A stretch of 4,077 nucleotides of DNA from a virus (IMGVR_UViG_2671181040_000009); one strand, 5' to 3'; shown: positions 1 to 4,077, numbered from the stretch's first letter. Numbers and translations: made by a program. Notes: generated from the sequence alone by a model not told the origin.

Positions 1-99
1 CTTCCATCGGAAACGATGATCTGGCAGCCTGAGTTCACAGATAAAACACTCTCCAGGAAACCCGGGGCGGTTCAGAGAGGTGCTGGCTCAAAAGGATAG
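1..99 (+). CDS. 3' end of an upstream ORF open at the window start (frame 1, stop TAG 97-99); identity unknown, possibly C-terminus of a Q-like late antiterminator by position only
   Basis: Frame 1 is open from base 1 to TAG at 97-99 (LPSETMIWQPEFTDKTLSRKPGAVQRGAGSKG*); the other two + frames hit stops within 30 nt. It sits just upstream of a tR'-like terminator and the lysis cassette, where lambdoid phages carry Q. I do not recognise the residues themselves. Confidence 0.25.
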   Translation, partial: LPSETMIWQPEFTDKTLSRKPGAVQRGAGSKG

Positions 100-262
100 A
101 TGTACTTCACATGTTGCTTCTATATGGCAGTACATTTTCTGACAGACAGTGACGGATGTTGTCAAGATATTGTGTCATTTATAACCTGAATCAGGGGAGG
201 CCGGAATGTTATCTGGCATTTTTAGCAGAGCCTGAATGCCATAATCACGGCTCCCGGCGTTG

Positions 263-299
263 GCCGTCAGTGGGTGACACTGGCGGCTTTTTTGTTTTT
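263..299 (+). terminator. Rho-independent terminator in the tR' position, upstream of the holin gene
   Basis: Stem 263-272 GCCGTCAGTG pairs with 278-287 CACTGGCGGC (10 bp, one G-U pair at 267/283), loop GGTGA, followed directly by TTTTTTGTTTTT (288-299). Seen directly in the sequence. Confidence 0.7.
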
Positions 300-343
300 C
301 TTTACTTTCATTTTCTGTCGGCGGTGACGGAGACATACATCAG

Positions 344-550
344 ATGGAAAAAATCACAACAGGTGTGTCATACACCACGTCAGCGGTGGGGACGGGATAC
401 TGGTTACTGCAGCTGCTGGACAAAGTCTCTCCGTCCCAGTGGGTGGCAATAGGTGTGCTGGGAAGTCTGCTGTTTGGCCTGCTGACGTATCTGACAAATC
501 TTTATTTCAAGATTAAAGAAGATAAGCGTAAGGCTGCGAGAGGTGAATAA
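344..550 (+). CDS. S: Class II holin (pinholin), phage 21 S21-type, 68 aa
   Basis: [68 protein letters not shown] closely matches my recollection of the S21 / DLP12 EssD pinholin (...[24 protein letters not shown]...[21 protein letters not shown]). Two predicted TMDs: a weakly hydrophobic Gly/Ser/Thr-rich TMD1 and a TMD2, with a charged C-terminus. GGAG at 329-332 as SD. Stop TAA 548-550 overlaps the next start (TAATG). Confidence 0.9.
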
Positions 551-1047
551 TGTCGCCGTCATTACGCAAGGCTGTTGCAGCTGCTATTGGTGGTGGGGCT
601 GTTGCCATAGCGTCTGTGCTCATCACTGGTCCAGGTGGTAACGATGGTCTGGAAGGTGTCAGCTACATACCATACAAAGATATCGTTGGCGTATGGACTG
701 TATGTCACGGACACACCGGAAAAGACATCATGCCCGGTAAAACGTATACCGAAGCAGAATGCAAAGCCCTCCTGAATAAAGACCTTGCCACGGTCGCCAG
801 ACAAATTAACCCGTACATCAACGTCGATATACCGGAAACAACGCGCGGCGCTCTTTACTCGTTCGTTTACAACGTGGGCGCTGGCAATTTCAGAACATCG
901 ACGCTTCTTCGCAAAATAAACCAGGGCGATATCAAAGGCGCATGTGATCAGCTACGGCGCTGGACATACGCTGGCGGTAAGCAATGGAAAGGGCTGATGA
1001 CTCGCCGCGAGATTGAGCGTGAAGTCTGTTTGTGGGGGCAACAATGA
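550..1047 (+). CDS. R: SAR (signal-anchor-release) endolysin, T4-lysozyme-like muramidase (GH24), phage 21 R21-type, 165 aa
   Basis: N-terminal Gly/Ala-rich SAR domain ([23 protein letters not shown]) followed by a lysozyme core with E35, D44 and T50 in the positions of the catalytic triad ([17 protein letters not shown]). Near-identical to R21 / DLP12 RrrD as I recall them. Start ATG 550 overlaps the holin stop; GAGGTG as SD. Confidence 0.93.
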
Positions 1048-1481
1048 GCAGGGTAACCGTTATTATCTCCGCTCTGGTTATCTGCATTATCGCCTGCCTG
1101 TCATGGGCTGTTAATCATTACCGTGATAACGCCATCGCCTACAAAGAGCAGCGCGATAAAGCCACATCCATCATCGCTGATATGCAGAAGCGGCAACGTG
1201 ATGTAGCAGAACTTGACGCCAGATACACAAAGGAGCTTGCTGATGCTAATGCGACTATCGAAAGTCTCCGTGCTGATGTTTCTGCTGGGCGTAAGCGCCT
1301 GCAAGTCTCCGCCACCTGTGCAAAGTCAACGACCGGAGCCAGCAGCATGGGCGATGGAGAAAGCCCAGGACTTACAGCAGATGCTGAACTCAATTATTAC
1401 CGTCTCCGAGGTGGAATCGACAAGATAACCGCGCAGGTTAACTACCTGCAGGAATACATCAGGACGCAGTGCTTAAAATAA
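1044..1481 (+). CDS. Rz: Rz i-spanin (inner-membrane spanin subunit), lambda-like, 145 aa from ATG 1044
   Basis: [31 protein letters not shown]... matches the lambda Rz N-terminus ([31 protein letters not shown]). N-terminal TMD then a charged coiled-coil periplasmic domain. ATG 1044-1046 overlaps the endolysin stop TGA 1045-1047 (ATGA). The ORF track starts at GTG 1032, but ATG 1044 matches the lambda Rz start and is preceded by a GGGGG SD. Confidence 0.9.
1243..1428 (+). CDS. Rz1: Rz1 o-spanin (outer-membrane lipoprotein spanin subunit), embedded in the +1 frame of Rz, about 61 aa
   Basis: ORF in the +1 frame lies entirely inside Rz. From ATG 1243: [36 protein letters not shown]..., with a lipobox-like VSAC and a Pro-rich mature region, as in lambda Rz1. 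AGGAG SD at 1231-1235, 7 nt upstream. The track start at TTG 1213 is less likely. Confidence 0.75.
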
Positions 1482-1518
1482 TTTTAATTTCACTGAAATT
1501 TAACAAGTGACTTTCAGG

Positions 1519-1548
1519 AAAATGCCTCGCAGATGCGGGGCATTTTTG
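1519..1548 (+). terminator. Rho-independent terminator downstream of Rz/Rz1
   Basis: GC-rich stem 1524-1530 GCCTCGC pairing with 1535-1541 GCGGGGC (one G-U), tetraloop AGAT, extended by A:T pairs (1519-1523 with 1542-1546), followed by a T-run at 1543-1547. An A-tract upstream allows bidirectional function. Confidence 0.7.
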
Positions 1549-1699
1549 TACCGGTATTTCACCGCGCACCGCAGCGCACAATAAACACCGAACCTGACCC
1601 TTTGGAATGGGCCTTTGAGGATACCAGTTAGTGCTGGCGAGCCTCGGTGGGCTGGTTTCCTGTGCGGCAAAGGTTCATTTCAAAGAAGCAGGCAACGCC

Positions 1700-2248
1700 A
1701 TGAATGAATTAATTGCGAATCATGACTTCGACTTTCGCCAGTTAGTTACCGCAGCAGAAGGTCAACCGGTAACTGACACCTTCCAGATTGCCAGGGCATT
1801 TGGTAAACGCCATCAGCATGTGATTAGGGCTATTAAATGTTTGAGATGTTCTGAGGAATTCTCGACAACCCATTTTTGGGCCGTCGAGAAAATCAATGAC
1901 TTAGGTATTTTTGACAAGAAACAGATTTACTACCGCATGGACTTTAGTGGCTTCGTTATGCTGGTTATGGGATTTAACGGGGCAAAAGCCGATGCTGTTA
2001 AAGAAGCCTATATCAATGCGTTTAACTGGATGTCAGCAGAACTCCGTAAGTACAGCGAAAGTTATGAAGCAGAACGTAACGCCGTAATGCTGGAGTACAT
2101 GAAAGAGAAGGATGTCGCCAGCATGTCAGGCCGTCTGCTCAATCGCTGGGGGAGAACGAAAAAAACTCAATTGCTTGCAAAGCTGGAACGTCTGGAGAGA
2201 CAGGGACAGTTTTTATTACCGGGATTCGATAAAGGTATTCAAGCCTGA
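1700..2248 (+). CDS. Rha-family phage regulatory protein (Phage_pRha-like domain), about 182 aa from ATG 1700; alternative GTG start at 1631
   Basis: Motifs VTDTFQIARAFGKRHQHVIRAIK and GFVMLVMGFNGAKADAVKEAYINAFNWM resemble the conserved Rha-domain blocks (FGKRHdnVlRdI and LLvMgftGkkA...YIeaFN) as I recall them. The short C-terminal tail is helical and charged. Start is ambiguous: ATG 1700 (MNELIANHDF...) or GTG 1631 with a GAGGA SD 9 nt upstream. Confidence 0.6.
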   Translation: MNELIANHDFDFRQLVTAAEGQPVTDTFQIARAFGKRHQHVIRAIKCLRCSEEFSTTHFWAVEKINDLGIFDKKQIYYRMDFSGFVMLVMGFNGAKADAVKEAYINAFNWMSAELRKYSESYEAERNAVMLEYMKEKDVASMSGRLLNRWGRTKKTQLLAKLERLERQGQFLLPGFDKGIQA

Positions 2249-2273
2249 CACATTATGCGCTGTATCGTCGCCG

Positions 2274-2338
2274 TATTCCCGCATTAACCATGACCGTAGC
2301 CCGACGGGGAATTCCTTCTGCGTGAGTGTGCGGGAATA
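2274..2338. repeat. Perfect 10-bp inverted repeat (TATTCCCGCA / TGCGGGAATA) flanking a 45-bp spacer, just after the Rha-like stop
   Basis: 2274-2283 TATTCCCGCA is the exact reverse complement of 2329-2338 TGCGGGAATA. Seen directly. No T-run follows on the + strand. Confidence 0.5.
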
Positions 2339-2435
2339 ATCAAAAACGATGCACACCGGGTTTTACTGTGCTGACAGACGCAGGGTTACCCTCATAGTCG
2401 CTTTTCCGGTGCGATGGTGGAAGAAACCGGGATGT

Positions 2436-2630
2436 TCATCCATCATCACTTTGGATTGATGTATATGCTCTCTTTTCTGACGTTAGTCTCCGACGGCAGG
2501 CTTCAATGACCCAGGCTGAGAAATTCCCGGACCCTTTTTGCTCAAGAGCGATGTTAATTTGTTCAATCATTTGGTTAGGAAAGCGGATGTTGCGGGTTGT
2601 TGTTCTGCGGGTTCTGTTCTTCGTTGACAT
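2436..2630 (-). CDS. ylcI: Small ribbon-helix-helix-like DNA-binding protein, YlcI/YnfO (DUF3950)-like, 64 aa
   Basis: Reverse-strand ORF MSTKNRTRRTTTRNIRFPNQMIEQINIALEQKGSGNFSAWVIEACRRRLTSEKRAYTSIQSDDG: basic N-terminus, then a beta-strand/helix/helix pattern (NIRFP / NQMIEQINIALEQ / NFSAWVIEACRRRL) typical of Arc/CopG-type RHH proteins. Same length (64 aa) and same position beside the Nu1 homologue as ylcI in E. coli K-12 DLP12, as I recall. ATG confirmed as reverse complement of 2628-2630. SD is weak. Confidence 0.6.
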   Translation of the reverse strand: MSTKNRTRRTTTRNIRFPNQMIEQINIALEQKGSGNFSAWVIEACRRRLTSEKRAYTSIQSDDG

Positions 2631-2691
2631 GAGGTTGCCCCGTATTCAGTGTCGCTGATTTGTATTGTCTGAAGTTGTTTTTACGTTAAGT

Positions 2692-2724
2692 TGACGCAGA
2701 TCAATTAATACGATACCTGCGTCA
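2692..2724. promoter_or_regulatory. 8-bp inverted repeat TGACGCAG / CTGCGTCA with a 17-bp AT-rich spacer; candidate operator or promoter element in the divergent region between the ylcI-like gene and Nu1
   Basis: 2692-2699 TGACGCAG and 2717-2724 CTGCGTCA are exact reverse complements. The surrounding 2640-2800 is AT-rich with recurring TGAC(G/A) motifs at about 2625, 2692, 2737 and 2767. Function is inferred, not shown. Confidence 0.35.
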
Positions 2725-2798
2725 TAATTGATTATTTGACGTGGTTTGATGGCGTAGATGCACGTTGTGACATGTAGATGATAATTATTATCATTTTA

Positions 2799-2815
2799 CT
2801 GTCGTTTCCTTTCTC
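2799..2815 (+). promoter_or_regulatory. cosB R1-like Nu1 binding element (CTGTCGTTTCCTTTCTC), the only lambda cos element retained
   Basis: Matches lambda R1 (lambda coordinates about 151-167, CTGTCGTTTCCTTTCTC) as I recall the lambda left end. Lambda-identical sequence continues from here into Nu1, but the sequence upstream of about 2799 does not match lambda. Confidence 0.55.
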
Positions 2816-2838
2816 TGTTTTTGTCCGTGGAATGAACA

Positions 2839-3384
2839 ATGGAAGTCAACAAAAAGCAGCTGGCTGACATTTTCGGTGCGAGTATCCGTACCATTCAGAA
2901 CTGGCAGGAACAGGGAATGCCCGTTCTGCGAGGCGGTGGCAAGGGTAATGAGGTGCTTTATGACTCTGCCGCCGTCATAAAATGGTATGCCGAAAGGGAT
3001 GCTGAAATTGAGAACGAAAAGCTGCGCCGGGAAGTTGAAGAACTGCGGCAGGCCAGCGAGACAGATCTCCAGCCAGGGACTATTGAGTACGAACGCCATC
3101 GACTTACGCGTGCGCAGGCCGACGCACAGGAGCTGAAAAATGCCAGAGACTCCGCTGAAGTGGTGGAAACCGCATTCTGTACTTTCGTGCTGTCGCGGAT
3201 CGCAGGTGAAATTGCCAGTATTCTCGACGGGATCCCCCTGTCGGTGCAGCGGCGTTTTCCGGAACTGGAAAACCGACATGTTGATTTCCTGAAACGGGAT
3301 ATCATCAAAGCCATGAACAAAGCAGCCGCGCTGGATGAACTGATACCGGGGTTGCTGAGTGAATATATCGAACAGTCAGGTTAA
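2839..3384 (+). CDS. Nu1: Terminase small subunit gpNu1 (lambda Nu1-type), 181 aa
   Basis: MEVNKKQLADIFGASIRTIQNWQEQGMPVLRGGGKGNEVLYDSAAVIKWYAERDAEIENEKLRREVEELRQ... is essentially lambda gpNu1 (N-terminal winged-HTH DNA-binding domain) with a few substitutions. The 546-nt length and spacing to A match lambda coordinates 191-736. Confidence 0.95.
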   Translation: MEVNKKQLADIFGASIRTIQNWQEQGMPVLRGGGKGNEVLYDSAAVIKWYAERDAEIENEKLRREVEELRQASETDLQPGTIEYERHRLTRAQADAQELKNARDSAEVVETAFCTFVLSRIAGEIASILDGIPLSVQRRFPELENRHVDFLKRDIIKAMNKAAALDELIPGLLSEYIEQSG

Positions 3385-4077
3385 CAGGCTGCGGCATTTT
3401 GTCCGCGCCGGGCTTCGCTCACTGTTCAGGCCGGAGCCACAGACCGCCGTTGAATGGGCGGATGCCAATTACTATCTCCCGAAAGAATCCGCATACCAGG
3501 AAGGGCGCTGGGAAACACTGCCCTTTCAGCGGGCCATCATGAATGCGATGGGCAGCGACTACATCCGTGAGGTGAATGTGGTGAAGTCTGCCCGTGTCGG
3601 TTATTCCAAAATGCTGCTGGGTGTTTATGCCTACTTTATAGAGCATAAGCAGCGCAACACCCTTCTCTGGTTGCCGACGGATGGTGATGCCGAGAACTTT
3701 ATGAAAACCCACGTTGAGCCGACCATCCGCGATATTCCGTCGCTGCTGGCGCTGGCTCCGTGGTATGGCAAAAAGCACCGGGATAACACGCTCACTATGA
3801 AGCGTTTTTCCAATGGTCGTGGCTTCTGGTGCCTGGGCGGTAAAGCGGCAAAAAACTACCGTGAAAAGTCGGTGGATGTGGCGGGTTATGATGAACTTGC
3901 TGCCTTTGATGAGGATATTGAACAGGAAGGCTCTCCGACGTTCCTGGGTGACAAGCGTATTGAAGGCTCGGTCTGGCCAAAGTCCATCCGTGGCTCCACG
4001 CCCAAAGTGAGAGGCACCTGCCAGATTGAGCGTGCAGCCAGTGAATCCCCGCATTTTATGCGTTTTCATGTTGCCTG
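3359..4077 (+). CDS. A: Terminase large subunit gpA (lambda A-type), 5' portion only (first about 239 codons), truncated by the window end
   Basis: Translation from 3359 gives MNISNSQVNRLRHFVRAGLRSLFRPEPQTAVEWADANYYLPKESAYQEGRWETLPFQRAIMNAMGSDYIREVNVVKSARVGYSKMLLGVYAYFIEHKQRN..., matching the lambda gpA N-terminus as I recall it, with a few substitutions. The start codon here is GTG (3359-3361), directly after an in-frame TGA at 3356-3358, and it overlaps the Nu1 3' end by 26 nt as in lambda (A at 711, Nu1 ending 736). Absent from the ORF track because it has no stop in the window. Confidence 0.93.
   Translation, partial: MNISNSQVNRLRHFVRAGLRSLFRPEPQTAVEWADANYYLPKESAYQEGRWETLPFQRAIMNAMGSDYIREVNVVKSARVGYSKMLLGVYAYFIEHKQRNTLLWLPTDGDAENFMKTHVEPTIRDIPSLLALAPWYGKKHRDNTLTMKRFSNGRGFWCLGGKAAKNYREKSVDVAGYDELAAFDEDIEQEGSPTFLGDKRIEGSVWPKSIRGSTPKVRGTCQIERAASESPHFMRFHVA

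Follow-up and report, generated by a model that had tools for sequence, protein, structure and literature searches.

A small lambdoid prophage gene, probably encoding a ribbon-helix-helix repressor, beside a deleted cos site and a Fur-box palindrome

What might a 64-residue protein be doing when its gene opposes the late operon at the right end of a lambdoid prophage, with inverted and recurring TGAC motifs in the DNA in front of it? The question is raised by IMGVR_UViG_2671181040_000009, a viral sequence of 4,077 nucleotides (the window, meaning the whole stretch analysed), in which a minus-strand gene of the ylcI type lies divergent from Nu1, the gene of the small terminase subunit. A first-pass annotation had proposed a ribbon-helix-helix (RHH) protein that binds these motifs as an autoregulated switch. 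The account that we prefer, and hold to be somewhat probable when taken as a whole, is that YlcI would fold as an RHH dimer and act as a sequence-specific DNA-binding repressor that reads DNA via its N-terminal arm and strand (..TTTRNIRFP..), that the spacer between ylcI and Nu1 is the end of a lambda-type chromosome with a cos deletion and a Fur palindrome, and that the inverted repeat can be called a candidate operator at most. Taken by itself, the gene very probably codes for a repressor that belongs to an uncharacterised family and is a small DNA-binding protein of the RHH type; the fold, the repression and a way of working like that of its relatives in phage satellites are what we infer for the phage-type protein, and its actual target is still a proposal.

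The open reading frame (ORF) runs on the minus strand over 2436-2630, with its ATG at 2630, and encodes 64 amino acids that match the DUF3950 model of Pfam (PF13132, YlcI/YnfO family) at an E-value of 2e-20 (72.8 bits, cutoff 25) and PHROG 949 at an E-value of 2e-35. The family core IRF...I....NFSAWV.(E/D)AC is kept in the window protein, and I15, R16, F17, I25, N36, F37, S38, W40, V41, A44 and C45 are invariant or nearly so in 39 diverse DUF3950 members. Copies in lambda, in phage 434 and in E. coli prophages are 97-100% identical to it; the lambda orthologue (48115-48303, complement; 97% identical) corresponds to no annotated feature in J02459. Compared with copies from Shiga toxin (Stx)-type phages, the ratio of nonsynonymous to synonymous differences (pN/pS) is 0.08-0.17 at a pS of 0.5-0.67, and owing to these values and the Pfam and PHROG matches the gene can be taken as real and under strong purifying selection, which bears out the YlcI-like identity first given to the protein. 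That ylcI is transcribed in K-12 follows from the convergent overlap of ybcW and ylcI in at least 50% of RNA-seq samples. A weak Shine-Dalgarno-like GGGG (2638-2641, minus strand) lies 8-11 nt 5' of the ATG, and a ribosome-binding site is annotated at the same position in phage 434. The window ylcI is a genuine, conserved phage gene. No functional characterisation of the YlcI/YnfO family was found in the literature searched, in agreement with what the first-pass annotation had said.

In lambda-type chromosomes ylcI occupies the extreme right end, approximately 170 bp to the left of cosQ, where it opposes the late operon and diverges from the first packaging gene. An opposite-strand DUF3950 gene between lysis and packaging genes occurs in two unrelated modules, Nu1/A and HNH/TerS/TerL; in Stx/HK97-type phages it stands between Rz and the packaging genes, 41 bp from the HNH gene. 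Across phages, it is the location of the gene, leading into two packaging modules that share no homology, that is conserved, and not its upstream DNA.

A set of 1.84 billion proteins yields only 141 clusters of the family at 50% identity, which makes it a narrow one, and many of these clusters are noisy copies of lambda DNA. Right-end DNA of lambda was met in unrelated assemblies (Streptomyces, Cohnella, Flavobacterium, 'Staphylococcus aureus' and others), often in contigs of ~3.5 kb (loci L087-L116, L122, L123, L126 and L135; proteins P0008 and P0016). Presumably it derives from a sequencing control or spike-in, which would inflate the apparent taxonomic range of DUF3950 and produce many frameshifted 'variants'.

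Is the protein of the RHH type? The AlphaFold2 model of the YlcI monomer (predicted local distance difference test score 64) has an extended N-terminus, a helix at 20-32, a loop and a second helix at 37-58; no strand is formed, as expected for a single-chain prediction that lacks the partner subunit. The best match of the 39-sequence profile in the PDB is the CopG-family RHH protein 9kkd, at an E-value of 0.15 and in the canonical register, and 9kkd is also the top Foldseek match of the model, where more than half of the weak matches are RHH proteins (KacA, HicB, MazE9 and Rv0298 among the weak fold matches) and all fall below significance. By hhalign, YlcI NIRFPNQMIEQI is aligned to Arc NLRWPREVLDLV with a probability of 3-4%, and a comparison with a small, hand-assembled RHH profile gave P=0.003 in the correct register. 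Within Pfam, at E-values up to 10, nothing besides DUF3950 was matched, neither the Arc model that defines the Arc/Mnt family nor another RHH model; no significant RHH link came from phmmer, from hmmsearch of the PDB or from hhalign with Arc, Mnt and the RHH profile. The residues that vary within DUF3950 are the equivalents of Q9 and N11 of Arc, and the equivalent of Arc R13 is an invariant Arg. The sub-significant matches of sequence and structure point consistently to CopG/Arc-type proteins, and the fold of YlcI, as modelled, is probably RHH-like and DNA-binding. The RHH assignment of the first-pass annotation is the best reading of the pattern of helices, the CopG top matches and the Arc register, but every single match is sub-significant.

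Resemblance to Arc and Mnt of phage P22 lies in the small size, the N-terminal arm and the strand motif N-(L/I)-R-(W/F)-P followed by helix-loop-helix. YlcI differs from them in that it has no significant sequence similarity, that the window has no clear operator and that the RHH fold is a prediction. A tetramer of Arc occupies a single operator of 21 bp; in the satellite homologues of DUF3950 there are instead three 14-mers with a period of 23 bp. Alignment to the CopG-family protein StnY (PDB 9kkd) covers the end of the strand, helix A, the loop and helix B of YlcI, however at ~28% identity and with both scores below significance.

The case for DNA recognition comes chiefly from these satellite homologues. 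Scanning one genome per species, we collected ~40 genuine divergent DUF3950 homologues in Enterobacterales and Pasteurellaceae. Most of them are the lone opposite-strand gene in integrase-AlpA-antirepressor-primase satellites resembling P4 or phage-inducible chromosomal islands (PICIs), and the others are orphans; no lambda-type cosN was found beside them, and no Nu1, gpA or Rz nearby. At ~20 satellite loci two 14-mers, nGGTG-N6-CAC, lie 23 bp apart upstream of the DUF3950 gene, the second of them followed by an invariant GTCAA that forms a -35-like TTGACG on the other strand, and a third copy lies over a TATAGT box just 5' of the gene. Together these repeats (loci L133-L163, L084 and L086) span ~-130 to -20, over a divergent TTGACG-18-TAnnnT promoter and the gene's own TATAGT box. 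The 14-mers are identical at 11.7 of 14 positions within a locus as against 9.1 of 14 between loci (permutation P<1e-4). In the sharpest comparison, between the loci L084 and L159, identity is 90-100% over hundreds of bases to the left and right of one 170-bp patch, within which it drops to 54-70%, and this patch comprises exactly the repeats and the first ~12 codons, which end in ..KKGIRF in one and in ..TTKGIRF in the other, while the divergent neighbour protein is unchanged. A further locus, L171, holds two DUF3950 paralogues, each with its own repeat set. These alignments show that the satellite repeats and the N-terminal arm are exchanged jointly, as one module. Co-variation of the repeats, their movement with the arm and the placing of variable residues at the Q9 and N11 equivalents amount to good comparative evidence that DUF3950 proteins read the adjacent repeats via arm and strand, in the manner of RHH repressors.

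Does the window contain such an operator? The inverted repeat TGACGCAG-N17-CTGCGTCA (2692-2699 / 2717-2724) is exact with a gap of 17 nt and can be listed as a candidate operator only. Interleaved with it is a second inverted repeat, ATCAATTA / TAATTGAT (2700-2707 / 2725-2732), which is conserved in lambda-type copies and not above chance, and a third TGACG copy, TTGACGTG (2736-2743, plus strand), is the same 8-mer as the invariant CACGTCAA beside the satellite repeats, there a -35-like TTGACG on the opposite strand. There are TGACG or CGTCA copies at 2692, 2720 and 2737 and a TGACA at 2768; the GC content of 2631-2800 is 37%, that of the whole window 49.7%. All of the features first described (the ORF, the exact inverted repeat, the TGAC(G/A) copies and the AT-rich DNA) are thus present.

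Autoregulation was to work through this very repeat, which YlcI would bind along with the remaining TGACG copies of its promoter, perhaps with an effect on Nu1. The repeat is exact in the window and lies 60-100 bp 5' of the ATG, as the operator repeats of the satellites do, its gene-proximal arm CTGCGTCAAC sits where satellites have their invariant ACACGTCAAC, and at the level of the family autoregulation is strongly suggested by the operator-like repeats of the satellite homologues. For the window itself the proposal is nonetheless doubtful, since its own repeat does not rise above chance: 6% of dinucleotide shuffles (P=0.06) yield an inverted repeat whose arms agree exactly over 8 bp and are separated by no more than 40 nt, phased repeats upstream of ylcI are at chance level only, and the TGACG enrichment has P=0.016 without correction for the choice of motif. 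The spacing also differs, with arms 25 bp apart from centre to centre, unlike the 23-bp direct repeats of satellites. The repeat is exact in only 9 of the 120 lambda-type copies, whereas 110 of the 120, including lambda and K-12, match at 7 of 8 positions; the left, gene-proximal arm (2692-2699) reads TGATGCAG in most relatives and CTGCATCA in the said 110 copies, so that the exact repeat is a minority allele. Position 2695 is C in the window and T in most copies.

A number of results weigh against the preferred account as well. A best-repeat statistic applied uniformly gave P=0.26 for the window, 0.22 for lambda and 0.70 for the Stx type, but flags the satellites at P<=0.005-0.045. The repeat is absent upstream of Stx-type copies that have an identical TTTRNIRFP strand, their upstream DNA is unrelated, and no motif common to lambda-type and Stx-type upstream DNA was found beyond chance. 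No good sigma-70 promoter for ylcI overlapping the repeat was found. Among lambda-type copies the ~190 bp upstream of ylcI are almost invariant and for this reason of little information. Likewise no RHH match reaches significance by sequence or structure, and it is only by analogy that the satellite mechanism may carry over to the window protein.

If the repeat is no convincing operator, what is the spacer? The window segment 2436-2798 is homologous to the extreme right end of phages lambda and 434, an identity that the first-pass annotation overlooked. In the window the ylcI-Nu1 spacer measures 208 bp, compared with 388 bp in K-12, lambda and all other copies, and it consists of ordinary lambda right-end DNA joined to the R1 repeat of cosB through a 180-bp deletion, with the junction placed at 2799/2800 by alignment to relatives. 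The missing ~180 bp (181 bp relative to the closest relative) hold cosQ (GGGTCCT), cosN GGGCGGCGACCT, R3, the I1 region and R2. The cohesive-end 12-mer of cosN, present in every relative, is absent from the window, and from the set of cosQ, R3, R2, R1 and I1 only R1 is left, so no functional cos remains. This retained Nu1-binding repeat, CTGTCGTTTCCTTTCT (2799-2814, plus strand), was recognised by alignment and the known anatomy of lambda cos (PMC9026076). Except for one gap, a prophage of the E. coli AMSHJX01 chromosome matches window positions 75-4077 at 100% identity, and the DNA on either side of the junction agrees at every base with an intact E. coli prophage.

All relatives, whether phages, the 5,426 complete E. 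coli genomes or K-12 DLP12, have ~180 bp more between the ORF and Nu1, and the junction itself was not found in these E. coli genomes, in phage records, in 185,579 GTDB representative genomes or in the fetched loci. DLP12 was considered as a precedent for the deletion and rejected, its spacer being intact. The junction arose either naturally, by a rare and very recent deletion, or as an artefact when the source sequence was assembled. With cos lost, neither cutting nor packaging of the prophage is possible at this position; the clean loss, which makes it an unpackageable prophage, is the most concrete new fact about the window, and the description 'former cos region' in the first-pass annotation was correct. 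Compared with ylcI-nohD of DLP12, ynfO-nohA of Qin and the right end of lambda, the window has the same gene, upstream DNA, Fur palindrome, R1 and Nu1; in contrast to K-12 and lambda it alone has lost cosQ-cosN-R3-I1-R2, and it lacks the TGATGCAG left arm that most copies carry.

The AT-rich DNA had been noted before, but its nature as a Fur box had been missed. A Fur-box-like palindrome, TGATAAT-T-ATTATCA, lies at 2779-2793, and the minus strand of 2780-2798 agrees with the 19-mer Fur consensus GATAATGATAATCATTATC at 16 of 19 positions, where 0.01 such matches are expected by chance. Strong clusters of Fur sites are known upstream of both Nu1 homologues of K-12, nohA and nohB, with scores of 22-25 bits, and for the nohA site at -233 there is both a gel shift with Fur in vitro and a recovery in vivo in a Fur titration assay (Chen et al. 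2007, PMC2189734). DLP12 carries this palindrome as well, at a verified distance of 232 bp upstream of nohD, its Nu1 homologue; the published nohB coordinate was placed on the palindrome by our own conversion between K-12 coordinate versions. By homology to the K-12 sites, the palindrome of the spacer is a predicted Fur site, differing from the nohA/nohB clusters in that after the deletion it lies ~50 bp from the Nu1 start rather than ~232 bp. A sigma-70 promoter-like element facing Nu1, GTGACA-16-TATCAT (2767-2794, plus strand; 10 of 12 matches), overlaps the Fur box, and its -10 box now lies 45 bp from the ATG of Nu1. With a documented Fur site, by homology, brought directly ahead of the small terminase gene, expression of this subunit might be iron-responsive in this copy. 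The spacer has no IHF consensus, no terminator and no match in Rfam.

These elements lend some weight to a different division of roles, in which the TGAC repeats are neutral features of AT-rich lambda DNA, the functional parts of the spacer are the Fur box and promoter, and formerly cos, and YlcI acts elsewhere, for example at a promoter that reads into packaging genes or at other prophage or host sites. We regard this as possible, though not probable. The repeat statistics lie at chance while the Fur box is far above it and backed by the literature; the gene keeps its place in front of two packaging modules that are not homologous to each other, and the upstream DNA is not kept; and the main repeats of satellites cover the divergent promoter, not solely that of the gene itself. 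However, the analysis found no other target for YlcI, analogy with the family speaks for gene-adjacent sites, and the near-invariance of the 190 bp upstream in lambda-type copies would fit constraint, although recent common ancestry would look alike.

The inverted repeat might instead act in RNA, by forming a hairpin either in the 5' leader of ylcI or in the late transcript that runs rightward in the sense of Nu1. For the 48-nt segment a folding energy of -13.5 kcal/mol was obtained with each strand, and the common A allele keeps the pairing of the plus strand (G-C to G.U) but breaks that of the minus strand. In a context of 140 nt the z-scores are, however, -1.6 and -0.7, the lack of a T-tract means that the structure is no intrinsic terminator, Rfam offers no match for it, and with one variable position there is no real covariation, all of which leaves a function as hairpin highly improbable. 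On the side of the window allele, the C at 2695 that makes the repeat exact turns G.U into G-C in the plus-strand RNA and A.C into G-C in the minus-strand RNA.

Returning to YlcI as a repressor, one has to ask whether an RHH-like protein need be a transcription factor at all. Many RHH proteins are antitoxins, and several of the weak fold matches (KacA, HicB, MazE9, Rv0298) might be read in this sense; alternatively, YlcI might modulate terminase or packaging by binding protein, given that the phage gene always adjoins packaging genes and that two satellites carry fusions of DUF3950 to the DNA-binding domain of a small terminase. Those fusions, to a helix-turn-helix (HTH) domain of small-terminase type, occur in two very different satellites (L171 4001-4363, P0252; L175 4001-4390, P0193) and lack an oligomerisation core. 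The E. coli one is annotated by the Prokaryotic Genome Annotation Pipeline (PGAP) as two pseudogene fragments, which counts against the modulator, as does the finding that known terminase hijackers (Rpp) are winged-HTH proteins and not DUF3950; identification of YlcI as a hijacker of the Rpp type was rejected on the same ground. An antitoxin is disfavoured since no toxin-like partner ORF was found in the window or at ~40 other loci, so that no toxin-antitoxin pair can be recognised. With operator-like repeats and module swapping both favouring DNA recognition, we consider it quite unlikely that YlcI is an antitoxin or modulator rather than a transcription factor.

The repressor account can be extended to the family. 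The YlcI-like gene of E. coli satellites has as its divergent neighbour a gene whose annotation is that of an Icd-like cell-division inhibitor (L171/L176 3542-4073), an arrangement present in ~1,350 of 5,426 E. coli genomes. In the PICI literature the global repressor of Gram-negative elements is described as unclear, with AlpA an activator. Like Stl of the Staphylococcus aureus pathogenicity islands (SaPIs) and Rpr of PICIs, the satellite YlcI-like gene stands divergent from an operon, here led by the Icd-like gene; three operator-like repeats cover the promoters on both sides, and its operators swap as a module with the N-terminus of the protein, much as in phage immunity regions. It has, however, no homology to Stl or Rpr, its role as repressor is predicted, and the comparison concerns relatives of the window gene and not the window. 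We offer only tentatively, and think it rather unlikely in full, that DUF3950 is a distinct clade of RHH repressors with an exchangeable arm/repeat module, serving in satellites as repressor of the Icd-like/replication operon and in lambdoid prophages, that of lambda included, as a prophage-expressed guard in front of the packaging genes which, together with Fur, acts against transcription into cos and terminase in the lysogen.

If YlcI is an RHH repressor, it would add a regulator at the junction of lysis and packaging genes in lambdoid prophages, and among its relatives one might then look for the repressor that is missing from Gram-negative phage satellites. Even in lambda, one of the best-studied genomes, the reference record carries no annotation for this ORF, conserved and under selection though it is and only 170 bp away from cos.

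Some further observations concern the satellites. A conserved GC-rich hairpin, GAAGCCCGG...CCGGGCTTC, with a T-rich run lies at ~-175 to -135, upstream of the satellite repeats (L127-L163), and may be a terminator or leader structure. The satellite of E. coli 90-3040 adjoins prophage HNH/terS/terL genes, the terminase genes being annotated as disrupted (L171 6040-7776), and has three DUF3950 genes in 4 kb; it may integrate into helper-type packaging genes. A 'transcriptional repressor' annotated in Pasteurella phage Pmp7 (L084 2583-3257, minus strand) was set aside as probably a mis-call, as it looks to be of low complexity and is antisense to the conserved DUF3950 ORF (3001-3180, plus strand).

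In its remaining gene content the window is a lambdoid prophage's late region. Genes for a P21-type holin (344-550), for a lysozyme (550-1047) and for Rz (1044-1481) are followed by a regulator of the Rha/ORF11CD3 type (1631-2248), then by ylcI, by Nu1 (2839-3384, plus strand; Pfam Phage_Nu1, E-value 4e-101) and by the start of gpA. DLP12 differs in having borD-ybcV-ybcW in place of the Rha-family gene, and lambda has bor and two ORFs in this slot, which is a mosaic 'moron' position.
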